Notes: generated by a model from the letters alone, not told the origin. A stretch of 64,000 nt of DNA from Cenococcum geophilum (GCA_050273025.1 CP158635.1:8804001-8868000); one strand, 5' to 3'; counted from the stretch's first letter, positions 5,610 through 43,297 are shown. Translations and numbers: made by a program.

Positions 5610-6032
5610 TGTTACGGACGCTTTAAGTACGATATTACGACTACTTGGAGAGGAGTCGGAAGAAGCTAGTTGGTTAATTTAGGCACGGTCTAGAATAGAG
5701 CCGATAGAGCTATGTAATAAAGAATGGTAACCGAAGTTATATAATGTTATACGCAGTATACGCAGTATACGAAAGGAACGTATATATAACACGTATAATA
5801 CGTACCTTACGTATAAGGGAGATTTCTTAGGAGTACGGTCGTGTATTTAAGGACCCTTAGTCCCTACCTAGATAGTTCTTTCCTTGTAGTAATTCTTAGA
5901 ATACAATTAGAGTTAATTTATTAGGCAACTACTCCACTAGTTATTATTACGTTGTTAACTTTAATTTGCATTACCTATATACTTAGCCTAATAATAAGCC
6001 TACCGTAGTACCTACTATAAGGTTTCGTTATA
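5610..6032 (+). repeat. 5' LTR of B1
   Basis: Homologous to LTRs at 18562 (split), 33348, 34707 and 42887; TG...CA termini (RIPped); TATA-like gtatttaa at ~5843. Confidence 0.95.
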
Positions 6033-12793: not shown

Positions 12794-13680
12794 ATAACTT
12801 GCCTTCTTTACAACTTCTAATTAATTATAAATTGCAAGCGCTAAGCTATCGGTCCGCCTGCTAGTAAACCTTCCATAAGTATTTTTTATACTAGCTTATA
12901 GCTGTCGCTAACCCTACTAAACGCCGTTAAAGCTCCTATGTCGCTCGTAAGCCGCTCCCCTAGCCTTGCTAGAACTAATCTACCTCCGCTATACTAAGCG
13001 TATAGCCACTACTAGGCGGGCTACCTACGGTAAGTAGGCTAACCGCAATTATAGGTACTGCTAATAACTAAATAAGTTATATTAACTAGTAAGTCTAAAT
13101 ACATTAGTTTAGGTTCTAATAGCTAACAGACTAGGTCCCTAAGGCCTTTTATAGCCGCCTAAATAAGCTACTCGCCCTTATTAATAAGGCTAAGCGCCAG
13201 CGGGTTGCTGGCGGAGACACGGCTAACCTTAATACTCGCGTCGCTGCTACCCAGAAGTCCTTTACGAAGGATATTAAGGCCTTAGTGCGCACCGGCACTA
13301 AGTACGGTCTCCATTAGCGCCTAAAGGGCGAAGACTTTCCCCTGCTTTAAGTGTAGGAATTATAGGCTATCCGTTATACTCTTAAAGGAATTCTTAACAT
13401 AATGCGCGCTTTAGTACGTGTTATAGCGCAGGTGTTTCGCTATTATAGCGTATACTAATAGTACCTATAGGCTAATATACCTCCTATTATAAGGGATAAG
13501 GAGGATAAGGGTAAGGAGAATAAGGAGAAAGGAGAGGGGGATAAGGAGGGAGAGGAGGAGGAGGAGGAAGAAGAGGAGGAGGTAGAGCTATAGAGGATCT
13601 GTATTTCTATTAACGTACTACTATTACTTCGCCGTTATTCCGTCGTCGCCCCGCTAATAAGGTATTATCCCGGTTATAAT
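12794..13680 (+). pseudogene. Antisense spliced gene of element C: Zn-cluster-like Cys6 motif, helical region, acidic tail
   Basis: De-RIPped CLRCAKR..C..C..C..C at ~12980-13085; introns with gt..gctaac..ag signals at ~12875-12931, 13089-13135 and ~13414-13470; poly-Glu tail at 13490-13585. Confidence 0.7.
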
Positions 13681-13689
13681 TAAAAGTTT

Positions 13690-16600
13690 TTTATTTTCCC
13701 ACCTACTTTCTTTTCCGTTTACCCCTTAGTGTAAAGTAATTATTATATATCTCCTTTGCGTCCTTATTAATGTCCTCTATAGGAACCTATTAGTTATATT
13801 CTTCTAGCTATCCTTTCTACTTAACTAGGTACTATAGGGCCTGGTTACATCCCTTCCTTCTATATACTTTTTCTACCTTATATCGGTCCTTTTAGTTTGC
13901 TTAATTATCTAGCTTAATAGGCCCTAGTAGAGGGTCTTTAGTAGTGCCCTTATATTATTTATATGGCTTTAGCAAGCTAATATAGAACACTAGGTAGATA
14001 CGGTAAGACATAGGTAGATATAGTTAGTATACTTACTTTCTAACTAGTTTGGCTATACTAAAAGGTCCAATAAAGCGTGCTATAAGTTTCTTACTTAGCC
14101 TTTTTAGTTTAAGGTTCTTAGTTAATAGTAAGACTAAATCCCCTACTTTATATACCTATAGTTAGTAATAACGATTATAGTATTTCGCCTACGCCTCGGC
14201 GGCGTATTCCTAGCGCTTCGCCAGCGCCCCTACGCCTAGGGGTCGCCTTAATAGCGTGTTTACGGGGTTCGTTTTTCCCGCCCTATGCTTAATAATAAAG
14301 TTATAGGCAGCCAGGGTTATAGCCCATCTGGCTTACCGTCTATTAAGGCTTTTTACTTTTATATAACCCTTTAGATTATTATAATCTAAGAGCACTTCTA
14401 GGCGGCTTAATAGCCCCTTAATGTAGTATCTCTAATGCTTAAAAGCCTTCATAATAGCTAGTAGCTCTTAATTATAGGTTTTATAGTTGCGCTTTACTAG
14501 CAAAAGCTTCCTAGACTAAAAGGCTATTGGATGCTAAAGGCCGTCTTTAAACAGCTATAATATAATTGCTACTAGGCCTTATATTAAGGCATCCGTCTTT
14601 AACCAAGTTAGTAGGCCTAGTATATAGTGTTGTAGGAGCGGCGCCGTCATAAAGGCGTCGTAGAGCCGGCGTATTGCCTACTCCGCCTCCTCTGGCCAAT
14701 TAAAAGGCCTAGCTTTACGGCCGTTCTTTACTCCTTTTAGGAGATCAGTAATAGGCTTCGCAATAGTAGAGTATTTATAAATAAACTAATAATAGAAGTT
14801 AGCAAAACCTAAAAAGACCTGGATATCCCTATAGGATTAAGGGCTCTCCTATTTAGTAATGGCTTCTACCCAGCTAGGATCTATTGCTATGCCTTTAGGG
14901 CTAATAATATATCTTAGGAACTTAATCTCCTATACGCCAAACTTGCACTTCTTAAGGTTTGCATATAGTTGGTATTGTTATAACCTACGCAGTACTTCTA
15001 CTACGTGGCGCTAATGTTCCTCTGGATTTTTAGAGAAAATTAGAATATTATTAAGGTAGACTATATAGAAGACGTCTACTAGTCCTAACAAGGCCCAATT
15101 AATATAGCCCTAAAAGGTCGCTAGTCTGTTAGTTAGCCTAAAAGGCAAAACTAAGTACTTAAAGTGGCCGTAGCGCGTGCGGAACACCGTCTTCTACTTA
15201 TTGCCACGATGGATACGAAGGTAGTGATACGCATACGTTAGGTCTAGCTTAGTAAAGATCCTAGAACCTACTAAGCGGTCTAAGGTCTTACTAATTAATA
15301 GTAGTGTCGTGGTGTAGATTGGACGTCGCCTACTGCCTTGGCATTTCCTGTATATATTGAGCCTTCGGCTTCTCTCCTTCTCTCTATTATCATCACGACC
15401 TACCGGAATACATTCTTTCCTTTCTTCTTACTGACTGCTTTCCTACTGATTGATTACGACTGACGACCGACTGACCGACAGACCGACCGACAGACAGACA
15501 GCATTGTGACTTCCTATCTGAGAGGTACCGCGTCCACCACCACAGTAGTACGAGACAATTCTTAATCGTTACCTTGTTAAGGCCTCTATAGTCTATATAG
15601 AGCTATAACTTCTTATCCTTTTTAGGTATAAAGAGGATAGGTGCCCCTGCGGGACTAGTACTTAGTTAGATCTAGCCTTTAGCTAAGGCGTTGTTTAAGT
15701 ACTCTCTTAGGACTTCTAGCTCCTTAGCTAAGAGGTTATAAAGCGGCCTATATAGGGCCTCCTGTCCCTCTTCTAGGTCAATAGCATAGTCGCCCTAGTA
15801 GTGTTGGGGTAGCTTTCCTACTTCCTTATAGGAGAAGATATTACTAACTTCCTTTAACTATGGGGGGAGGACTAGTAAGCTGCCGTTATCTTACTTACTA
15901 GGTATTACTCTAGAAGTTAATAGGGTAAAGACCCTAGATTCTATCTAGAGAGACTCCGCGAAACCCTTAGGGGTTTATAGCAATAGGGACGAGCCGTCCA
16001 GCTTCTATTGCTACGCCTTTGCCTCGCAGTTAATAAGAAGTCGGGCCTTCTTTAACCCCGGTATACCTAAGGTAATAGTAGGGAATATATTAGCCATTCT
16101 ATAGCAGATAAGGGTTACTTCCCTAATCTTGCCCCAGCTGTTCTTTATTCTTAGTAGTACCTTATAGGCCTTATAGCAATATGCCTAAGTCTTATTTAAC
16201 TAGGAGTAGGTAGGTAGCTTTACATCTAGCGTCTTAAAGTTACACTCTATAGCAAATCGCTAGTTAACTATATTTACTTTAGCACTAATATTAAGCATTA
16301 CTAAGGTCTCCTTCTAGGTCTTCTTTAGGAGGACTTTACCTAAAATAGTAATAGCTTTCTTACGATCTAGTGGGAGCTTATACCCTATAGCTGTAAGGGG
16401 GTCCAAGGGCGCTTATCTTTTCCCAGTGTAGAGGTAGCGTTTACGCTACTAGGTGGTAGTTAATTCCGTTACTACTCTTTACATTATCGCTACCAATATC
16501 TTAGCTGCCTACATTTTAAGCAGTTTCCTTTAGGCTAAGTTAAGCCCCTAGCGGTATTGCTTTGCCCCACTATTAAGTCGCTAGCGGTGGTTTTAAAGTC

Positions 16601-17569
16601 TGCTTTCCCTAAGTTACCCAACTAGGTGGTCTTTATATTTAGGTTCGCGGCGCGCCTATTACTTCTACCCTATAGGGCGCTTGCGCTCTTCTGGTTTTCC
16701 TCTAATAGGGCAGCTAGGAAAACTAGCTGGTCTTAAGATTAAGGAAATTCTTAATAGTTAGTAATAGCACCTATAGCTCTGGCCGCAGCTTCACGAACAG
16801 ATATATTATTAGATACTTTATATTATAAGGAGGATTAATTTTACGCTTCTAAGGAGGTCAGGTAAGTAGTAAACTCGTTTACTGGTTAATTGGTTCACTA
16901 TATTGCCTTCGCGTAGGTTAGGGCTATATAGAGTTCTTAATTAATAGGACTTTTGATTTAGTTAAGTAGGAATTCCATAAGCTCCTCCTAGGTAAACTAT
17001 GTGTCTAGATAGTTATCTTTATACTATAACCAAAGGGTTTAGTTAGTCCCCTTTATATATTATATAGTAAATACAACTTTAGTATCCTTATCTATAAAGC
17101 TATTACGCTCTAGGCGGAATGCTAGCTTTAAGCTATTACGGAAGTCTTAGTGCTCTTATATAGACTTGCCATAATATGGAGCAATCTTCTCTATCTTAAC
17201 GGCCCGTTTTAATAGAGCGCCTAATATATTAGTAGCCCTCCGCTTAAGACTTAAATGCATTAGGCTACTCCCTAAGTACTCTAATAGGATTATTTAAGGT
17301 TGTAAAGATGGGTTAGGAACGGGAGTCGACGTTACCTCGCCGCGTTAACGCCGTCTTAGCACTTCCACCTCCTCCCTAAGCAAGTATAGTTTTCTTTACT
17401 TTAGGAGTTGTAGCTTCTCGTTCTCTAGCCATTATATTTCTTCTTATATATTCCTTTTACCTATAGCTTCCGGTTCTGTCCGGGACGACATAGGTTCGCC
17501 TATATTATCCTAGGGCTAATCCCCAGTCTTAGTAGTACACACTGCGCTAGTACGCCCGCGTCTCGCCAT
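13690..17569 (-). pseudogene. Element C gag-pol (gag, knuckle, PR, RT, RH, truncated IN, chromodomain)
   Basis: ATG 17569; knuckle CLKCGQPGHWQRQC at ~16480-16525; VMLDTGAEVN at ~16270; LPFGLTNGPATFQ; VYLDDILI at ~15050; NYETHDQELLAI; GKTNPADAPSRRP joined to AQAKYYN..FIGPF..IHPVFHVSLLEPY; chromodomain YEVEKV..YLVKWKGWPEEYNQW. Confidence 0.92.
15305..15544. mobile_element. Solo LTR of a fourth family, not RIPped, inserted in the RT of element C
   Basis: Termini tgtcgtggtg...caccaccaca; 4-bp TSD gtag (15301-15304, 15545-15548) whose removal restores the RT frame (..ALPLI..); abundant CA/TG; TATA-like gtatatat and (gacc/gaca)n run. Confidence 0.85.
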
Positions 17570-17700
17570 TAGGTCAATAGGCTATAATGTAGTTAATAAA
17601 TATAGGTCGTCTTCTTAACAGAGGGTTGCTGCTATATAGTCGTAGCCTTCGCAGACCGTTGTTGGGCCACTACCCCTAAAAAGGGATAAGAATTTAGTAC

Positions 17701-17903
17701 TATTAGGACGCCAAGGTCCTTAGGGCATATAGTAACGTAATAATAGTAATGGGATGCAAAGAGTATCTGGTTCTTAATAAAGTAGAACTATAGAACTGAA
17801 TTCTGCTATTCTCTAGTACGGGGCGACTACATTTTGTAGGCGCCTTGCCTACGCCTTGCCTGCGCTAAGCTGGTTACGGCTAGTGCGTCTCTATAGCCTA
17901 ATA
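17701..17903 (-). repeat. 5' LTR of element C
   Basis: Direct repeat of 12361-12563; TSD ttaag follows. Confidence 0.95.
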
Positions 17904-18004
17904 TTAAGACAGTTTACTATTTAGCTGCGTAGTAGTAGATTAAATATAAAACCCTAAGATAAATTAATTAAGAAACTAGATGACTATTAAAAGTAATAAA
18001 TCGC

Positions 18005-20875: not shown

Positions 20876-21026
20876 TAAAGGGAATATATATATAATATAT
20901 ATAACACGTACCTTATATATAAGGGAGATTTCTTAAAAGTACGGTCGTGTATTTAAGGACCCTTAGTCCCTACCTAGATAGTTCTTTCCTTATAGTAATT
21001 CTTAGAATACAATTAGAGTTAATCTA
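20876..21026 (+). repeat. B1 3' LTR, piece 2
   Basis: Matches the middle of the 5' LTR (~5770-5920). Confidence 0.92.
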
Positions 21027-21028
21027 TA

Positions 21029-21258
21029 TTAGGAAAAAATTTACTAGCATCTAATTTTACTTTTCTGCCATTTTAGCATTTTTTAGCATTTCTAGCATTT
21101 TCTAGCATTTAGCAGCTAAATGCGGCATTTATTATTAAGTACTAGCATTTAGCGCCAAATGCCGCATTTATAATTAAGTATTAGCATTTAGCTACTAAAT
21201 GCTAGAAAATGCTAAAATGGCAGAAAAGTAAAATTAGATGCTAGTAATTTTTTCCTAA
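21029..21258. repeat. Foldback palindrome at the left end of the TIR element
   Basis: ttaggaaaaaatttactagcatctaattttacttttctgccattttagcattt... pairs with ...aaatgctaaaatggcagaaaagtaaaattagatgctagtaattttttcctaa. Confidence 0.93.
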
Positions 21259-21259
21259 A

Positions 21260-21745
21260 GTTCTATATAAAGTTTAAAGTTTTACACAAAGTTCCGCACG
21301 AAGCTCTACATAAAGCTCTACACGAAGTTCTATATAAAGCTTTACACGAAGTTCTGTATAAAGCTCTATATAAAGCTCTACATAAAGCTTTGCATAAAGC
21401 TCTGCATAAAGCTCTACATAAGGCTCTGCACGAAGTTCTACATAAGGCTCTATACAAGGCTCTATACGAAGCTTTATATAAAGCTCTGCACAAAGTTCTA
21501 CATAAAGCTCTATACGAAGCTCTATATAAAGCTCTGCATAAAGTTCTATACAAAGCTCTATACGAAGTTCTATATAAAGCTCTGTACGAAGTTCTATACA
21601 AAGCTCTGCACGAAGCTCTGTATAAAGCTCTGCATAAAGCTCTATATAAAGCTTTGCACAAAGCTCTATACAAGGCTCTACACAAGGCTCTATATAAAGC
21701 TCTGCATATAAAGGCTCTGCATAAGGCTCTACGCGAAGCTCTACA
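21260..21745. repeat. 12-bp minisatellite (aaagctctgcac-type, ~40 units)
   Basis: Directly visible; source of the spurious ALHK / RALC repeat ORFs. Confidence 0.95.
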
Positions 21746-21960
21746 CGGGGTGCAGCTAAGTAGGGTTATGGAAAAGTTAAATAGGGTCACCAATAGGGGT
21801 CGGCGAAAGCTAAATAGGGTCACCAATAGAGCGCCGGGAAAAGGTCGGCGGGGTCACACTTTTACCTATACAGAACACGCATTGGTAGCCATATTTAACT
21901 TAAGTGATTACACAAACCAAAATATCTAGGGCATATACTACGCATATACAGGCATATAGG

Positions 21961-22066
21961 ACATATATATATATATATACACACATATATATATATATAT
22001 ACACACATATATATATATATATACACACATATATATATATATATACACACATATATATATATATAT
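21961..22066. repeat. (TA)n/(CA)n microsatellite, probably a (CA)n tract partly converted by RIP
   Basis: TA runs interrupted by residual cacac. Confidence 0.85.
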
Positions 22067-22089
22067 TTACGCGTGTTATAGTATATAAA

Positions 22090-25000
22090 TAATAAGTAAA
22101 AACTATACTAAGGCAAACGAGAGTATAGCAGGATAGTTAAACGGCCTACTAGTTAGTATGCACAACCATATACTACGCATATGCTAAGTATACGCAGGCA
22201 ATCTAGAGCTTACCTAATATTAAATATAAAGACGATAGTTCTTAAGATAATATAATCGGCGGAGAGGGTATTAAAGATAAGGAGGGTAAGGAGGAGGATA
22301 AGGAGGGCAAGGGTTAAGATAGTATATAATAGCGGCTTCCATTTTATATGGGTCTCTCTAAGGTAAAACTATATCCGACTTTATGCATAAGCTATATATA
22401 TGCTTAGAATAGCTAGGGAACACTCCAAGACTATAGAGCACTTGTTAGCTCTAACGGTAAGTATTAAGTTATTATCTAAGAGGTAATAGACCATATTGTA
22501 ATGCCAGAATATCCAGCAACTAGGAAAGAAGGAATTGCACACTTTATCTACAAAGCAATACCTCTGCTGTCTATAGATGTAGATAAAAAAACGGTATATA
22601 AGGTTATTAATTGGTATATATTAAAGGTAAGTAATATATATGCAAAGCATATACTATATTTATACATCTAGTAGATTTAATTCTCTTTTTATTAAACTAG
22701 TAGCCCTAGGATTACACAACTATAGCTTCTTAGTGAAAACAATTGGGAGAGTAGAAAAGCATTCCACTAAGCGTTTAAATATAGCGGTATTAGACACTAT
22801 AAGTACGCCTATAAGGATATGCTTAGTATATGCTTAGTATATAATAGGGTTAAGCTTAAATTAATTAACAACCTCCGAAAGTGTAGTAGTCGTCCATACT
22901 AGGTAGTAGAGATTAATAAAATGCTTAAGTAAAGTATAGAGAAGTAAGTATTATCTATATACGTTAGGTATATACTTATAATATACAGCTACTACTACGG
23001 TGTTCTATAATTATAGCGGTAGTATATCTACCTTAGTATATAAGAACGTGTATATAGTAAAAGCAGACTAATAATGTTTTTTTGGTATAGAGTACGTATA
23101 TATCCGGCGTATGCGCGATATATACTTATTATATATAGGTAGAGTTTATTAGTTGTTCTAGTAGCAGTGATACTAAACCATAGTATACTGCCTAGCCTTT
23201 ATTATTAATAACTGCCCAGGTAGATATTTAATACCTTCGTTTACTTATTAAATATAGAGTTTAGGAAGTTAAATAAGAATGTACCTATATTGGACATATA
23301 ACGTCAAAGCGAAAATATTGTGGTATGTAATGTATATATCGTACATGCGCTATATATATGCTGAGCCGATGTAGGATTTAACCACCTATAAGGCTAAGGT
23401 AGGATAGTGGGCCGAATATGTAGTGCATAGTTAGACTGCTATATTCCTGTTAATATGGCACGGTATCCTTATATTTGCCTTATTACACGAAATTCTTATA
23501 TATATTATCTACTACATCTAATAAAGCTACCAATCGACTTTGCTAATGATGTAGTTGAAGCAATAAAGTAGGTGGATGTCCTAAGCCTTATTATACGTAT
23601 ACTCCATATATGCATAGTATATATAAATGAAACTACTTACCATTATATAGGTCGATTTATCCTATCGCCGCAGTACTATATTTTATGTAGGAAGTATAAA
23701 ACGCAGACACTACGTGCCGTATATAGTAGTCTTAATATTAAGGATTGAATTACTACTCTAATTCGGAAGGAAAGGATGCTATAATTCCTAGAGGGGACGG
23801 TATATGCAGGTGAGTATAGGTTAGATATACGCTAAGCATATACAGAGGCTAAGCGTAGTAGGTGTACTACGCGAGTTCTCTATTAATTAATATAAAGAGA
23901 ACACCGAGTAATGGATTTGGGTAATTTATAACTTTAACGACGAGCATTTCCTTATTGTATGTTGTATATATATATAAGCTAAAGTATTTTAACGCGTAAC
24001 ATGTATTGAAATAGACCTATTATTTAAGATAGTTTAAGGTAAAATAAATTTATTCTTAATTGTAGGATAGGACGAGAATTCTAAATATATGCATACCCTA
24101 TGCTATATATATGCCATGCATAAGCTAAACACTTATAGGAATTAAGGTGTGGGTATACGCCTTTCTTAACCTAGAAACACGTGCTGCGTATATAGGGATA
24201 TTTTAGCTAGTATTTAAGGTTTTAGGTAATACTGCTCAATTATCTATATAATTTGTATATATTTACGGAACTGGACTTCGCACTGCTATAGTTGATATGT
24301 ATAAGAAATAAGCCGGTGGTAAGTATACGCTCTATATATGCTTAGTATATACTAGGCATATGCTTATAATATATAGGCTTTGGAGATTACCTATATATAA
24401 TTAACCCATTCCGTAAATGGGATGAATACCTTTAGTATATACTTGTATTCTGCCTAGTACATATTAAATAAAACTTTATAAAGCGCTTTCGAACTTATAA
24501 AGTAAGATATATTATAGAGTAGATATAGGAAGCGGAGATAGAGCAGAAACTAACAGCGCGTATATAAAGTATATGCATACTATATCCGGAGCTTACATTT
24601 TAAATAAATAACAAGAAGAAACTATAGATACTAGCCGAGCTTATAAAGGAAAAGTTAAAGGTTCCTTATAAGTGGTGGGCATATACACGGAAGCATACTG
24701 GAATTGGTAAAAGTAGTCACTTTTAAGAAAATAACTTTACTGGTTAAAAATTATGCGTGCTTACTGCCGTACTACGGTAACGGTATATGCTCTGTATATA
24801 CTCTGCATATTCTAATATTTTAGTATAGGCTTAAACTTCGTATATAAGAAATGTTTAATCTATAAGAGCTATACGAAGAGACGGGAATAGATAATATATG
24901 GAAAAATTAGAGTAACTTAAAGCGGATAGTAGTACAGCTATAGAAATAATGTATGCATATATGCCGTATATGTAAAGCATATACTAAGCTTAAGTAGCGT

Positions 25001-25480
25001 AGAAATAGCAGAAATTAGCTAAGCGGCGAGCTAGAAATCCTAGCCTAAATTTTCCTTAGAATTCTTAGAATCTATTTAATACCCCTAAGCCTACTATATC
25101 TAGTAGCCAGATTATCTCGCAGATAAGTATAGTAGATAATAATATTATATTAGTATTGGATACGTCGCGGGTATCTACCGTATATGCAGCGGAGATGCTA
25201 CTACTACTATTACGAAGTTAAACACCCCGGACTACGGGTAAGAGGCATAGGTCTTACCTATCTATAAAGGAGCTAGAAAAGGAGGCATATATACTACATA
25301 TAGAAAATATAGAGTGACGAATTAACAAATTAAAATAAGCTAAAGACGTATATAATAAAGTAAAAGAACTAGTAGAGCTTAAGAAGTGGGTATAGGAGCA
25401 TAATGTTAGTATATAGGGCGCATATATATAGTATATGTATAGAAAGTATTATATAGAGTTCTATAACGAATAAAGAATTA
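22090..25480 (+). pseudogene. Multi-exon DDE transposase, Mutator(MULE)-like
   Basis: De-RIPped YICLITRNSHTHHPP (~23470-23520), IEMDLSFK (D at 24014), TVDMCKKQAGG (D at 24294), LVFCLVH (CxxH at 24451-24462), HTGIGESSH (E at 24709, RIPped gaa>aaa); many ~50-bp GT-AG introns; ends approximate. Confidence 0.72.
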
Positions 25481-25659
25481 ATTAATATAGACCTATCGCC
25501 CCGTGCTCTATATTGGGTATATGCCTAGCCTACCTACTAAACAAACCCTAATAAAACTCCGACTGTGCATAATGTATACTATATGCTATATGCGTAGCGT
25601 GCAGGCCTAGTATATGCTAGGACTTATAGCTTAGGACTTATATAGTAAAGGCGAGTTAA

Positions 25660-27450
25660 GTAGCGGGTTCTGCCTGTGGCTTATATAGAGTATAAGCATA
25701 ATATACGTAACGGAAGGAACCAAACTTACTAGAGCTCTTACCTCTACTATAATAGCCTATTGGCTTTTTGCTTGCTGGTGCTAAATATTAGCTATATATA
25801 TATAGGGTATATATAAGATAAGCTTACCCCTTTAGCGGTGGGTAGACGGCGAGGGGGACTCCTCGTAGTTGTCTGGTGGGGTTGGGCCGCGCTATATATA
25901 TAGTTAGCGTATACTAAATATATACAGGTGAAATATTGACCCTACGTTTTAAGCCGGTGGAGGGAGTAAACAGGCTGACGCGCTGTTTCTCTTTTATTAG
26001 TATACGCCTAGCATAAGTACGCGTTAACCTATAGTTAGTAGAAGACAATGGGGGTTTATATATATGAAGTATATGCGTATATAAGCTAGCAATATAACCA
26101 AGTAGTGGTTTTAGTAATGTATATGTAGGGCCTATATAAAGTCAGACTTTGCTAGTCTCCTAAATATAAAGATAAGCGTTTATTTCCGAATTGGGTAGTA
26201 ATTCTAGCGGTAGCTGTGCTTGTTCCTTATATACGCTACCCTTAGGCCTATAAGTACCCTTAGGTCTAAAATTAAACTTAGGGGGAATAAGTATATATAT
26301 AGATAGATAGATAGATATATTAGGGTATAGTGCGCATATATAGAAGCGACACAAGTGCTCTTACCTTGCGATGGAATTGCCTGCCAAATTAGGTAGTAAA
26401 CCCCTGGTCTTAAGCACTGTATTTAGTTAGATTATACTAGATATATACTCTGAAATTCTTAACCCTAAAGGGCTACGGCTGTGTGTAGTGTTAGTACTAT
26501 ATATATAGTGCATGTACAAACCTACCTGGGCTTATATAGGTACCTAGTATTTCGCCAGCCACTAAAGAGAACGAAACGCTTTAGGGCGCTGCGTTATATT
26601 AGCGTTGTATATACATAGCATATACTAGGTATATACTTCTCCCCCGTAATTAACTCCGCAGCTAACATGTTGGTAGTAGGAGGGTTGGTTACTACATATA
26701 GTAAGTATATACCTTTAGTAAACTGCACAGTAATATATACGGGTACTAATATACTCGTTGCGGATATAGCAGCGGTACTATAACTCTATTAGTAGGATGT
26801 AGATACTATATATATACAGAATATATATTAGGCTAGGCCGTAAAGACCTAGCCGCATATCTGCGTGCTATTTACTATAATATCGCAGCTATATTTATTGT
26901 TAGCATATACTGTATATAAGGTATAAATATGCGACCTATACTATAGAGTTAATAGTAGATAGCGCGGAGGTAGGGTTAGGTAGATTTAGTTTACGCTTAG
27001 TATATGCGTACTTTTTGCGTAGAGCCTTTCCGGTACCTACTTACGTTGTTTTAGATAGTTATAGCTGGGGCTGTAAGGTTAGTATATGCTATAGGTATAC
27101 GGCTTTAGATTTACGTACGCCTTTTACCTACTACTGCTATGGCGGCGCATACTTTATCTACTATAAGCATATACTTTGTATACGCGTTCTCTATAACTAG
27201 TATTACCTAGTTAGGGTTAGGGTTAGGGATCGGGCCTATATACTTCTATTAATATATACTTCTTCTAGGTATATACGAAGCATATACTTACTATAGTAGT
27301 ACCTAAAGGCGCTAGGGTTAGTGGCACCGGCCACCTACGGATTGTTAAAGTCTGTAATTATAAGGCTTATAGTGAGTATAGGCTAAGCGTATACCAAAGT
27401 AAAATTAAGATATTAATGTTGCTTTAGCTAGATGTTAGCATATACAGCGC
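25660..27450 (-). pseudogene. Second, convergent multi-exon gene of the TIR element (unknown function)
   Basis: Repeated minus-strand intron signals (cta..ttagc..cttac on the plus strand) alternating with short GC-richer, Pro-rich exons. Confidence 0.45.
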
Positions 27451-27469
27451 TTATATAGTAGTAAGTTCT

Positions 27470-28445
27470 TTGATTAACGTCTGATACGGATCCTATCTAG
27501 GCCCACGCAGACTACTCTGTACACAAGGGAAACTTATAAATTGATAAGAAGAAAACCCTTGTTGATATAGGGGATGGAAAAACCCTATGAGCCACCTCAG
27601 TAGGATGAAAAACCCCTATTTTGCTATGTCTGTCCGTAGCGGCGGCCCTGCGGGCCTACGGCTACGTCTTGTCCTCCTTGGATGATTCGAACTCCTTGGG
27701 AACCACTGCTTCCTTTACCAGGACATACAGTCCTTGCCTGATTTGATCGCTGTACTGTTATTTCCTATATCTTGGCCATCTCCTGTGTGCTATCTCTTGT
27801 TTAACCATTGCCATATACGCTATGCCTCCCCCCCCCCTAAGGCCTATTAAAGGCGTAAGGGGGATTTATCTATAAACTACTACTATACCATACTATGAGG
27901 CGAGCGGGACGTGTATACCTGGGTATCTTTTGTGCCTAGGCCCTAGTTACTAGGCCCTCGCTAAGGGTCACCACTCCTTGAGAGGAGATAGGAAAACCGT
28001 ACGGTGTCGTCCAGGCTGCCAGGTTTTTTTTTTGGTATTCGATAGTTAATGGCGAGTGACCGCATGCTCCGCGGGCGATCGCCCTGGGGGTTAGGAGGGG
28101 CCGTATATTTGCTCGTTGCTCGTCCGTTCGCAATAGCTCGTTCGTTAATAGGAGGTCGTTGATGCTTTCTATTGGGGGTCGGGGGATGCTATCGAATGCC
28201 GCGCATCTATGTTGGATTGTATAGGTGCTTAGCAGGGGAACAGTAATGGCTGTATTGTGTGAAGGGGTACCGTCTATAGTGGTTTTCGAGATCTCACTAT
28301 CCCGTGTGAAAACTTTTTACTACGCCCCACGACTATATAACCACCACCAGGCCCACCAACACGCTGTGCGACGTCTCTGCGTTGGCTCTGGATAAGATCT
28401 AGGTTCGTAGCCGTCACCACGTATAGGTGCAGAGTCCGATTTTGA
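27470..28445 (-). other. Weakly RIPped island with a possible short ORF and 3' hairpin
   Basis: CA/TG content clearly higher than the flanks; ORF fragment 27936-28133 extendable through RIP stops; hairpin ccgtag..ggccc tgc gggcc tacgg at ~27634-27661. Confidence 0.4.
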
Positions 28446-29019
28446 CGGCCTATAGCGCTTATATATAGGCTATATAGTATATACTTGTGGCGTATGCTGT
28501 GGTATTATAGAGAAGTTCTAGTGCGACCGCCATTATTGTGGATATATAACGCGTATACACGGTCCATATTTTAATAACTTAGCTCACTTACTTTATGCGG
28601 TTACTAGTAGGATATATATGCCCCACATATGCAAGCTACGCGTTATTTAATATTTACGATTTATTAAATACCGGAAATTATTAAGCACTATGAATTTTTA
28701 TTAAAAATTAAAATTATTTTATATATACGCTATATATGCAGAAACTTAGTAGGGTTAGAAGCTAAGTATAGTTAGAAAGGTTCTAACCCTATTAAACTTT
28801 ATAACCTTACCGAGTTTTTCTATAACCTTGCCAAGCTATAAGCCTAGCTCTACGTATAGAGGCTCTACACGAAGCTTCGTATTAGGTCCCCACTATATTC
28901 CCAATAGCCTCTATATATGCCTCTGCTAAGTATACCCCTTATATACACCTAGGTAGCCACCTTATTTTTTACCCTTCCTTATATCCTCCCTACCTAGGAA
29001 GATACCAGAACGATAGGTA

Positions 29020-29170
29020 ATAGACGACTATTACTGGAGCTAGACAACCGTCAGAGCTAAACAACCGTTATTAAAGCTAGACGACCGTCGCCGGAGCTAG
29101 ATAACCGTTGCTAGAGCTAAACAACCGTCGTTATCGCTATATGACCGTCGCCAGAGCTATATAACAACCG
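29020..29170. repeat. ~22-bp minisatellite (agacgaccgtcgccggagct-type, ~7 units)
   Basis: Directly visible. Confidence 0.85.
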
Positions 29171-29231
29171 TTTAAACAACTAGCTAGCGAATATAATAAA
29201 CAATTCGATTAATTGATTAAATTAAGGTAAT

Positions 29232-29424
29232 ATAGACAGGTAGGCATAGATAGGTAGGGATAGATGGGTAGGTATAGATAGACAGACAGATAGATAGATA
29301 GGTAGATAGGTAAGTAGGTAGGTAGATAGGTAGGTAGGTAGGTAGATAGGTAGGTAGGTAGGTAGGTAAGTAAGTAGGCAGGCAGGCAGGTAGGTAGGTA
29401 AGTAGGTTAGTAGGTAGGCAGGTA
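29232..29424. repeat. (TAGG/TAGA/CAGG)n tetranucleotide tract
   Basis: Directly visible. Confidence 0.9.
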
Positions 29425-29534
29425 GAAGAGAACCGTCGCTATATTATATTAAATTATCTAAAATAATATAATTTATTTTGCACTAACTGCGTAGGAAGAG
29501 TAATACTTATTTATTGCTTAAAGTAAGTAAGATA

Positions 29535-29742
29535 TATAGAATGCGCGAGAAGGGTATTATATACAGAATGTGTAAGAAGGGCATTATGTACAGAATGCGC
29601 GAGAAGGGTATTATATATAGAATGCGCGAGAAGGGCATTATGTATAGAATGCGCGAGAAGGGCATTATATACAGAACGCGCGAGAAGGGCATTATATACA
29701 GAATGCGCGAGAAGGGCATTATGTACAGAATACGCAAAATGT
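29535..29742. repeat. 27-bp minisatellite (agaatgcgcgagaagggcattatgtac, ~7.5 units)
   Basis: Directly visible; explains three overlapping 9-aa-repeat ORFs. Confidence 0.95.
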
Positions 29743-29959
29743 GTAATTAGCTGCACTGCATTGTTAAATATAGTAGTATATAGTAGTATGCCGCACTATA
29801 TTATTAAATATAGCAGTATACTACACTGTATTATTAAATGCAGTAGTATGCCGCACCTTAGTTAATACTATACGCTACACATTATAGTGCGCGGAATGCG
29901 CATTTGGCCGCCAAATGCTGCTAAATGCTGTAAAAATGCTGGTAAATTTTTTCCTAACG

Positions 29960-30073
29960 TATTAGGCAACCACTCCACCAGTTATTATTACGTTGTTAAC
30001 TTTAATTTGCATTACCTATATACCTAGCCTAATAACGAGCCTACCGTAGTACCTACTATAAGGTTCCGTTACA
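29960..30073 (+). repeat. B1 3' LTR, piece 3
   Basis: Matches 5920-6032; ends gttaca, followed by TSD ctaag. Confidence 0.93.
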
Positions 30074-30119
30074 CTAAGGACTTTAAATTACTTATTACTA
30101 CTATCTTTGGGGAATATAA

Positions 30120-30230
30120 ACGTATATATAAACGCTATATAAACGCCTATATAAAGCTCTGCTTAAAGCTCTACTTAAAGCTCTATACGGAGCTCTACTT
30201 AAAGCTCTGCTTAAAGCTTTATATAAAGAG
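30120..30230. repeat. 12-bp repeats (aaagctctgctt-type) in the backbone
   Basis: About 6-8 degenerate units. Confidence 0.75.
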
Positions 30231-42886: not shown

Positions 42887-43297
42887 TATTATAGACGCTT
42901 TAAGTATAATATTATAACTACTTAGAGAGGAGTTAGAAGAAGCTAGTTAGTTAATTTAAGCATAGTCTAAGATAAAGCTAATAGAGCTATATAATAAGGA
43001 TTAGTAGCTAAGGTTATATAACGTAATTTATATAATTTATAGGATTTATAATAAAGCGAATAAAGCATACGTACCTTATATATAAAGGGGATTTCTTAGA
43101 AGTATAGTTGTGTATTTAAAGGACCACAGTCCCTACCTAGATAGTTCTCTTCTTTATAGTAAATCTTAGAATATAATTAGAGTTAATCTATTAGGTAACT
43201 ACTCCACTAGTTATATTTACGTTATTAACTATTCTATATCTATATACTTAGCCTATTAATAAGTTTACCGTAGTTCCTGCTATAAGGCTTTATTACA
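42887..43297 (+). repeat. 3' LTR of B3
   Basis: Ends ttaca, followed by TSD attaa. Confidence 0.95.

Follow-up and report, generated by a model that had tools for sequence, protein, structure and literature searches.

Background

IS256, a bacterial transposon family, is the counterpart of Mutator; it duplicates 8–9 bp of target on insertion and moves by copy-out/paste-in. A duplicated TA, by comparison, is the hallmark of the Tc1/mariner elements. The length of the duplication is treated as a diagnostic of the transposon superfamily and is taken to mirror transposition-complex geometry (PMC3706591). A C/DxxH motif in the transposase is common to hAT, Kolobok, P, MuDR and bacterial IS256 (Kojima and Jurka 2013, PMC3706591), and duplications of 4–10 bp are given there for the CxxH superfamilies. 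For Mutator-like elements (MULEs), duplications of 8–11 bp are described, also in table rows of Dupeyron et al. 2019 that state a value (PMC6446971). In this study we analyzed a 64,000-nucleotide stretch of the Cenococcum geophilum genome (GCA_050273025.1 CP158635.1:8804001-8868000), hereafter the window, which holds at positions 21027–29959 a transposon of ~8.9 kb with short terminal inverted repeats (TIRs), a degraded transposase gene predicted to be IS256/Mutator-like, and a target duplication of only 2 bp. An original prediction, made by a model from the sequence, had described this element as a Mutator-like TIR transposon with a TA duplication and a convergent second gene, and we report here how the element compares with the described systems.

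Results

A single insertion into a long terminal repeat duplicated TA

The element entered a host long terminal repeat (LTR) as one insertion that split it in two. Its left TIR (21027–21050, plus strand) reads TATTAGGAAAAAATTTACTAGCAT, and its right TIR (29936–29959, minus strand) reads CGTTAGGAAAAAATTTACCAGCAT as the reverse complement; the two are identical at 21 of 24 positions and differ at three, in each case by C>T or G>A, which are transitions of the type caused by repeat-induced point mutation (RIP). When up to three mismatches were allowed, the 22-nt TIR core matched at both ends of the element and nowhere else in the 64 kb, with 0.01 matches expected by chance, and two matches were found in none of 100 shuffles.

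Four uninterrupted copies of the same LTR are present in the window, with junctions at 5920, 33659, 35019 and 43190, and these serve as empty sites. By BLAST, the 500 bases to the left of the insertion aligned to all four copies and ended at exactly these positions, and alignments of the 500 bases to the right started at 5919, 33658 and 35018, giving a 2-nt overlap with the left-flank alignments (for the copy at 43190, the right flank was compared by eye alone). All four intact copies read ...AAT(C/T)TA|TTAGG..., and the occupied LTR reads ...AATCTA[TATTAGG......CCTAACG]TATTAGG.... Matched to the intact copies, both sides of the insertion share TA alone (TAT at most), which excludes a duplication of 8–11 bp. 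The left half of the interrupted LTR, placed by BLAST and junction reading at 20878–21026, ends with one copy of the duplication (TA, 21025–21026), and the right half, placed by BLAST and empty-site joints at 29960–30071, begins with the other (TA, 29960–29961). Contigs of four public sequencing runs were also aligned to the window at ≥80% likeness, and in all four runs a joint 21024>29960 with 3 ambiguous bases was recovered, representing LTR copies without the insert. The TIRs of about 24 bp and the TA duplication, both of which the original prediction had read from the window, are confirmed by these comparisons.

The TIR starts with seven bases, CGTTAGG (here TATTAGG), that echo the target TA|TTAGG, and the right junction forms a near-palindrome, CCTAACG-TA-TTAGG (21020–21033, 29953–29966); this resemblance could be due to chance, or to a preference for targets resembling the element's own ends.

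The 2-bp duplication is a property of the family

When metagenome contigs were scanned with the TIR core, at least 125 loci were returned, with flanks of up to 1500 bases beside the TIR, and 131 ends were read among the matches listed, to which all counts of ends and of complete elements given here refer. Outside TTAGG, the terminal dinucleotide was CG at 82 ends, TA at 26, TG at 12, CA at 9, and CT and TC at one each. CG, TA, TG and CA are the RIP series of a terminal CG, and at the left end of the window copy RIP has turned this CG into TA. The next two bases outward were TA at 81/131 ends, and at 74/117 distinct ends after removal of repeated flanks, compared to a TA background of 18% in the 60 bases further out (binomial p about 1e-26). 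By type of end, TA was found at 23/36 right-type and 42/68 left-type ends; around 10 left-type matches are the inner TIR of the left foldback described below, where the neighbor is element sequence, and three such distinct flanks remain in the count.

Both ends could be read for nine pairs, corresponding to eight insertion events. Five of these complete elements were flanked by TA on both sides (cA, 2766 bp; cB, 1703 bp; cC, 1583 bp; L035, 1626 bp; L025, 446 bp) and one by AG on both sides (L026, 462 bp), and the remaining two had discordant flanks, namely L016 (1420 bp, AA / TA) and a 623-bp element copied as one event within a host repeat (L005 and L076, GT or TA / CT). A flanking repeat longer than 2 bp was found in none of the eight, and the tabulation across copies returned no duplication of 8–11 bp. 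The ends without TA, and the AG/AG pair, indicate that TA is not part of the element and that the preference for TA is strong and not absolute. A duplication of 2 bp, mostly TA, is a property of this family of elements and not a one-off event in the window.

The 623-bp member lies in an amplified host repeat, and the same insertion recurs in many contigs, including L005, L076 and 12 ends with the flank ...CGTATATAGT-AG. At another locus (L028:1524-1682), the sequence that abuts a right-type TIR on its outer side has 86% identity with window positions 22971–23129, in the transposase region, and one family member appears to have inserted there into the interior of another.

Homologous proteins form an unannotated family in Pezizomycotina

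The longest single-frame piece of the transposase remnant (24376–24816) was compared with 1.84 billion representative proteins using HMMER, which identified 63 proteins at E≤1e-3 and 37 at E≤1e-10, the best at 3.3e-35. A word-indexed protein search with the same RIP-mutated stretch gave no match, and the 63 proteins found by the exhaustive scan show that such a search is blind to RIP-degraded queries. Among the long homologs are P0013 (969 aa), P0055 (1012 aa) and P0022 (834 aa, Annulohypoxylon); further ones are P0008 (566 aa, partial, Blastomyces percursus), P0038 (Pseudomassariella) and P0003 (Aspergillus ellipticus), and later searches added proteins of Penicillium and Polytolypa. Examples of homologs that appear intact are KAI2466462.1, XP_040712373.1, PYH88476.1 and the Penicillium argentinense protein N7532_001510. 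All homologs with a named organism belong to Pezizomycotina, and all named proteins are called "hypothetical" or "uncharacterized".

The homologs share a series of motifs, in the order GxHxHxPP, (I/M/V)DL(S/A)(F/Y)K, TxDM, (F/Y/L)CxxHxxR(N/S/G/A) and xE(S/V)(S/T)H, for three of which (I/M)DLSFK, FCxVHxxRNF and xESSHF are alternative readings. In the family alignment, C287, H290 and R293 are conserved and E374 is nearly always present, and the first and second D are conserved in the rows that cover them. Pfam searches gave no credible family for 15 homologs at E≤0.01, for 5 at E≤10, or for the 62 members of the alignment (A2) at E≤10. None of these 62 members matched a zinc-finger model, nor the models for Harbinger (DDE_Tnp_4, Plant_tran), CACTA or Tc1/mariner/pogo, and those for Harbinger and Tc1/mariner/pogo also found no match in the element itself. 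With no Pfam model matching and all named homologs hypothetical, the suggestion that the element may belong to an unclassified fungal DDE lineage gains support.

The predicted fold is closest to an IS256 transposase

To examine the fold, we modeled P0008 with AlphaFold2 using a 62-row alignment, and mapped the residues onto the model ourselves. The mean predicted local distance difference test score (pLDDT) was 80, and it exceeded 90 over most of residues 130–410. In the model, D178 lies on strand 174–180, D254 right after strand 250–253, and E374 on helix 372–384, with a spacing of D(75)D(119)E and the CxxH motif 33 residues beyond the second D; the stretch between strand 284–286 and helix 372–384 is all-helical. 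P0008 is thereby predicted to have an RNase-H-like DDE core with an all-helical insertion domain. The upstream C...C...GxHxHxPP region of the homologs is modeled with lower scores (pLDDT 40–75).

When the model was compared with the PDB by Foldseek, the top five matches were all chains of ISCth4, a member of the IS256 family (E 1.1e-5 to 2.0e-4, probability 1.00), followed by Hermes at 1e-2. VIA-align likewise placed ISCth4 (PDB 6XGX / 6XG8 / 6XGW) at Z 13.5, 12.9 and 11.6 with 266–298 residues aligned, the best structural match having 266 residues aligned of a 355-residue chain. All other folds reached Z ≤8.6, including retroviral integrases, Hermes and the P element transposase (both 8.4–8.5), RAG1 (7.6) and the catalytic domain of Mos1 (7.3–7.5). 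The predicted fold thus places the transposase on the IS256/Mutator side of the CxxH group, where "Mutator-like" is to be taken as a statement about fold and motif alone.

The window copy carries a RIP-degraded transposase gene

By tblastn, residues 135–792 of P0013 and 87–743 of P0064 are collinear with the plus strand at 22420–24783, in six pieces that change frame. A family profile hidden Markov model (HMM) run over six frames of the whole window matched plus-strand positions 23647–25377 alone, with the matches collinear with the profile as far as its position 563 (of 576). Taken together, these placements outline a gene remnant at about 22420–25377 on the plus strand, a transposase pseudogene with several frame switches (introns and/or frameshifts). 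The stretch used as query above has 10 in-frame stops in its 147 codons.

Read by eye in three frames of the plus strand, the remnant shows the pattern IEIDLLFK, ...LNLETRAAY...GTGLRTAIVDMY, an intron-like gap GTAAGT...TAG (24316–24375, plus strand), and then GFGDYLY...FCLVHIKxNF...SSHFxENN. The first D, within IEIDLLFK (24014–24016), the second D (24294–24296) and the CxxH, as CLVH (24451–24462), are intact, and the catalytic E, nearly invariant in the family, is K in the window copy (24709–24711). Where homologs have HxHxPP, the window reads SYIYYLL (about 23494–23514), with H>Y and P>L changes that are both RIP-type. Literal HxHxPP and DLSFK, which the original prediction had listed among the motifs of a plus-strand gene, are absent from all six raw translations of the element, and its E is a K; its two D residues and CxxH stand, and the homologs carry the listed motifs. 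Judged from the homologs, SYIYYLL and IEIDLLFK read as RIP-mutated forms of those motifs.

Signs of RIP extend over most of the element, which has a G+C content of 30–40%. The RIP indices are strong, with TpA/ApT of 1.3–2.0 and (CpA+TpG)/(ApC+GpT) of 0.4–0.8 over most of its length, as judged by the usual thresholds; the second index is nearer 1 in both terminal 0.5–1 kb (about 1.0–1.2) and in a nested insert (0.86–0.93) described below. Contig variants differ from the window by 362–492 transitions per class vs 13–31 transversions per class. The element has no open frame, and its longest open reading frames (ORFs) outside tandem repeats are 126 and 98 aa. Pfam searches of six frames read through stops as X gave, at E≤1, only weak non-transposase matches that were all under the curated cutoffs, and shorter pieces around the catalytic core gave no match at E≤10. 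With at least 10 stops in 147 core codons and the catalytic E changed to K, the copy in the window is dead. A second or partial copy of the transposase or interior was not found elsewhere in the 64-kb window, and in the sequencing runs the interior family is multi-copy, with up to 40 contig variants per interior position (run X1).

Ends, subterminal repeats and deletion derivatives

The left end of the element is a foldback of 236 nt (21027–21262, plus strand), composed of the outer TIR, palindromic GCATTT arrays and an inner inverted TIR at 21238–21260. Its arms are 96% complementary over 57 nt (inverted repeat I1), and the folding energy of the single DNA strand is -76.3 kcal/mol (z = -16.2). 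Metagenome copies show the same foldback, again with TA and a 12-bp tandem array after it. The first 236 nt hold 12 occurrences of GCATTT or its complement (50.8/kb) and the last 259 nt hold five (19.3/kb), vs 0.4–0.5/kb elsewhere, a 40- to 100-fold enrichment at both ends, and these repeats are candidate transposase-binding sites.

Next to the foldback, Tandem Repeats Finder identified a subterminal array with ~36 copies of a 12/24-bp unit, AAGCTCTATATA (21297–21743), and a 22-bp / (AT)n microsatellite (21961–22066). The right subterminal region (28466–29935) also consists of tandem arrays, with a 20-bp unit at 29036–29165, TAGG at 29247–29426, a 27-bp unit at 29532–29735 and a 30-bp unit at 29778–29856, and has GCATTT near its end. 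Rfam searches of the element gave sub-threshold matches to microRNA models on tandem repeats alone, which we judged spurious. Deletion joints at 21385>28846 and 21435>28859 connect the left 0.4 kb to about 28850, and deletion derivatives keep roughly 21027–21900 (left 0.4–0.9 kb) and 28830–29959 (right 1.1 kb), the right subterminal region being retained from about 28830 onward. Between the transposase remnant and the nested insert lies an interior of ~2.07 kb (25378–27445) that is multi-copy, with many contig variants in all four runs.

An array of the 12-bp unit AAGCTCTATATA is also found at 30114–30228, ~150 bases to the right of the insertion and just past the LTR homology, with 74–86% identity to the array at 21297–21743, and contigs of the sequencing runs join the two arrays. 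Elsewhere in the window, positions 13001–18000 have a G+C content of 0.39–0.43 vs 0.22–0.38 in the rest of the window (nested insert aside), and could represent a gene island or a portion of the repeat nest that RIP has affected less.

The supposed second gene lies in a nested insert

The only minus-strand ORF longer than 100 aa outside tandem repeats is one of 126 aa at 27939–28316, within a G+C-richer segment at 27.5–28.5 kb. This segment is an abundant repeat of ~1 kb (27458–28453, minus strand) that was inserted into the element, with a 12-bp direct repeat, AGCGCTTATATA, on either side at 27446–27457 and 28454–28465 (27446–28465 in all). Contigs of three of the four runs have the joint 27445>28454, which skips 1008 bases with 9–12 ambiguous bases, and the summed depth in the nested insert is ~10x that of the transposon interior. 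Two more copies of the insert, with their own duplications of 12–14 bp, were found in metagenome contigs, one of them reversed and inside another member of the TIR family. TIRs were not found in the insert (best 15/30 matching), nor did ARAGORN detect a tRNA-like part; it matched no Pfam family, including those for reverse transcriptase, and no Rfam family, and its 126-aa ORF had no usable match in the ESM Atlas. Non-LTR retroelements lack TIRs, make variable duplications of 7–20 bp and have a reverse transcriptase or a tRNA-like head. Our best guess for the insert is a non-LTR retroelement or a SINE-like repeat (SINE, short interspersed nuclear element).

For the remainder of the element, no homolog was detected for any minus-strand frame, and Pfam searches of seven stop-free ORFs in 25.9–28.5 kb gave nothing credible. 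The interior (25378–27445) had no Pfam match in six frames, no match to the family HMM and no convincing frame. A minus-strand frame with few stops at about 25000–26400 was rejected as a gene, being rich in Tyr, Ile, Ser and Leu and without a homolog. A degraded second gene in 25378–27445 is possible. The convergent, MuDR-like two-gene layout that had been proposed is not supported, since the sole sizeable minus-strand ORF belongs to a separate ~1-kb insert that other copies lack, and no coding signal was detected in the interior.

Discussion

A probable RIP-killed copy of a TA-preferring transposon

We consider it likely that the element, ~7.9 kb in length without the later nested insert, was once autonomous and was killed by RIP, and that it belongs to a multi-copy TIR transposon that moves by cut-and-paste, encodes an IS256/Mutator-like transposase and makes a 2-bp, TA-preferring duplication. 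The transposase would act on these ends by binding the 24-bp TIRs together with the GCATTT repeats that cluster in the subterminal regions, and would join the ends to the target with a 2-bp stagger, preferably at TA, leaving the 2-bp duplication; we infer that this would be by cut-and-paste and not by copy-out. Internal-deletion derivatives of 0.45–2.8 kb that keep both ends, and far outnumber full-length copies, would be moved in trans.

Several observations weigh against this interpretation. At none of the at least 125 metagenome loci is the window interior attached to an end (within ≤1500 bases beside the TIR), and the link between the gene and the ends draws on one copy and the depth profile. 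Among the distinct ends, 43/117 have no TA flank, and 2/8 complete elements have discordant flanks. As TA is palindromic, a duplication is distinguished from a TA carried by the element through the empty sites of the window and a single AG/AG pair alone. With respect to the transposase, the six frames of the element (stops as X) gave no Pfam match to a transposase domain, and the link to IS256/Mutator is drawn from a predicted fold and short motifs, in a comparison whose structures included no eukaryotic Mutator transposase. The family sequence profile matched no solved structure in the PDB, returning low-complexity noise alone, and the MULE (PF10551) and Transposase_mut (PF00872) models matched 0/62 family members at E≤10. 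Weak matches to DDE_Tnp_IS66 were seen in 2/62 members (best E 0.037, well under the curated cutoff); no IS66 chain was among the fold-search matches shown, and IS66 might be another distant relative. The fold closest to ISCth4 and the CxxH motif uphold the "Mutator-like" label of the original prediction, and do not extend to membership in the Mutator superfamily itself, for which MULE and Transposase_mut do not match and the duplication is not of 8–11 bp.

Alternative explanations

Of the other explanations, the most probable is that the gene does not belong with the ends. The TIRs and subterminal repeats would then be those of an abundant non-autonomous family moved by an unrelated TA-targeting transposase encoded elsewhere (e.g. 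Tc1/mariner or pogo), with the gene as cargo or as the relic of another element between two such ends. The lack of any metagenome locus with interior beside an end is what such an arrangement would give, as are the excess of ends over interior, which is 10–80x by summed contig depth, the left end that is by itself a complete foldback unit with two TIR copies, and the TA duplication typical of Tc1/mariner. However, all 8.9 kb came into the LTR together and left just one TA duplication, and no second inverted-repeat pair brackets the gene, as the only inverted repeats found around it inside the element were TA-rich 12-mers. The element also has no Tc1/mariner or pogo domain, the short members look like ordinary internal deletions of the full-length structure, and flanks of 1500 bases may fall short of the interior where it lies beyond tandem arrays of variable length. 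We regard separate origins of ends and gene as unlikely, though the strongest competitor to a single transposon.

It is less probable still, and by a wide step, that the element belongs to an already described lineage with 2-bp or TA duplications, i.e., the EnSpm-like ESTA or Plavaka (CMC), or PHISTA/ISL2EU (PIF/Harbinger). Fungal ESTA, PHISTA and PlavakaA/B elements with TA or 2-bp duplications have been published (PMC12730594), and Repbase and Dfam were outside our search. Those lineages are described as having C(2)C and H(3-4)H motifs with similarity to RAG1, or a Harbinger-type DDE (PMC12730594), and this description sets them apart from the present family, whose alignment has a single CxxH as the only conserved motif in the rows that span this stretch, whose model scores Z 7.6 with RAG1 vs 13.5 with ISCth4, and whose 62 members have no Harbinger or CACTA Pfam match.

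Finally, that there is no duplication at all, the element carrying one terminal TA and inserting beside TA so that the palindrome creates an artefact, is very improbable, for although the flanking TAs could equally belong to a longer inverted repeat and the title of one paper mentions a eukaryotic group lacking duplications (PMC4122938), the distinct ends that lack TA, the complete element with AG/AG, and the single TA of intact LTRs vs two at the occupied site all argue against it.

Comparison with known transposons

A once-autonomous, TA-preferring transposon of the IS256/Mutator kind resembles each of several known systems in part. In common with IS256 it has a DDE core interrupted by a helical insertion and, beyond the second D, a C..H..R motif, which is described for IS256 (PMC3706591). 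It differs from IS256 in having only 10–16% identity and no Transposase_mut or PDB sequence-profile match, and in that the fungal family is eukaryotic, with intron-like gaps, longer proteins (834–1012 aa), an N-terminal Cys/HxH region and a coiled-coil tail. This N-terminal C...C...HxH region may resemble the WRKY/GCM1-type zinc finger of MULEs, which are marked by that N-terminal finger and/or by a C-terminal SWIM or CCHC finger. Like Mutator and the MULEs, including fungal Hop and Mutyl, the family consists of TIR transposons of eukaryotes that have an IS256-like DDE, a CxxH motif and many non-autonomous deletion derivatives. The differences are duplications of 2 bp vs 8–11 bp in MULEs (PMC6446971), TIRs of 24 bp vs the long TIRs common in MULEs, and the lack of a detectable mudrB-like second gene.

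The TA duplication, short TIRs and many miniature derivatives recall Tc1/mariner and pogo, whereas the fungal element is far larger and matches no Pfam model of their DD(E/D) transposase or paired helix-turn-helix (HTH) domains, and the Mos1 catalytic domain is a distant structural match. ESTA, Plavaka and PHISTA are like it in being fungal and in their TA or 2-bp duplications. The hAT, P, Kolobok and Dada elements, which are the remaining eukaryotic superfamilies with CxxH/DxxH and for which duplications of 4–10 bp are given (PMC3706591), differ from the 2 bp seen here; Hermes (hAT) and the P element transposase align with lower scores than ISCth4, and Kolobok and Dada are without a solved structure.

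An unannotated lineage and what it means

The literature that we searched, with Repbase, Dfam and subscription journals outside its scope, yielded no lineage of the Mutator or IS256 kind that duplicates 2 bp or TA, and a prior description of the family in Repbase or Dfam is possible. For Leptosphaeria maculans, a RIP-rich fungus, the repeat table lists no Mutator-type family of this size (PMC3105345). What we describe is an unannotated lineage of Pezizomycotina, on the IS256/Mutator side of the CxxH transposases, with 2-bp, TA-preferring duplications. More tentatively, and with somewhat less than even confidence, it may be an undescribed lineage of eukaryotic DNA transposons at or near superfamily rank, so far found only in Pezizomycotina and with this element as its first recognized member, that descends from IS256/Mutator and retains the CxxH motif with its stagger shifted from 8–11 bp to a TA-preferring 2 bp, and that would be the sole such CxxH transposon known.

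Locally, the copy in the window is of importance only as one further layer in a nest of RIP-mutated repeats. Other fungi carry apparently intact genes of 834–1012 aa, and to judge from these, some members of the family may still be active. An IS256/Mutator-like enzyme with a 2-bp duplication breaks the duplication-length rule of DNA transposon classification, and as the proteins match no Pfam model, such elements are probably mis-filed as Tc1/mariner-type, or left unclassified, in fungal annotation. The lineage also offers a natural contrast for learning what in a DDE transposase determines the stagger at the target, and its intact relatives might serve as TA-targeting transposon tools.

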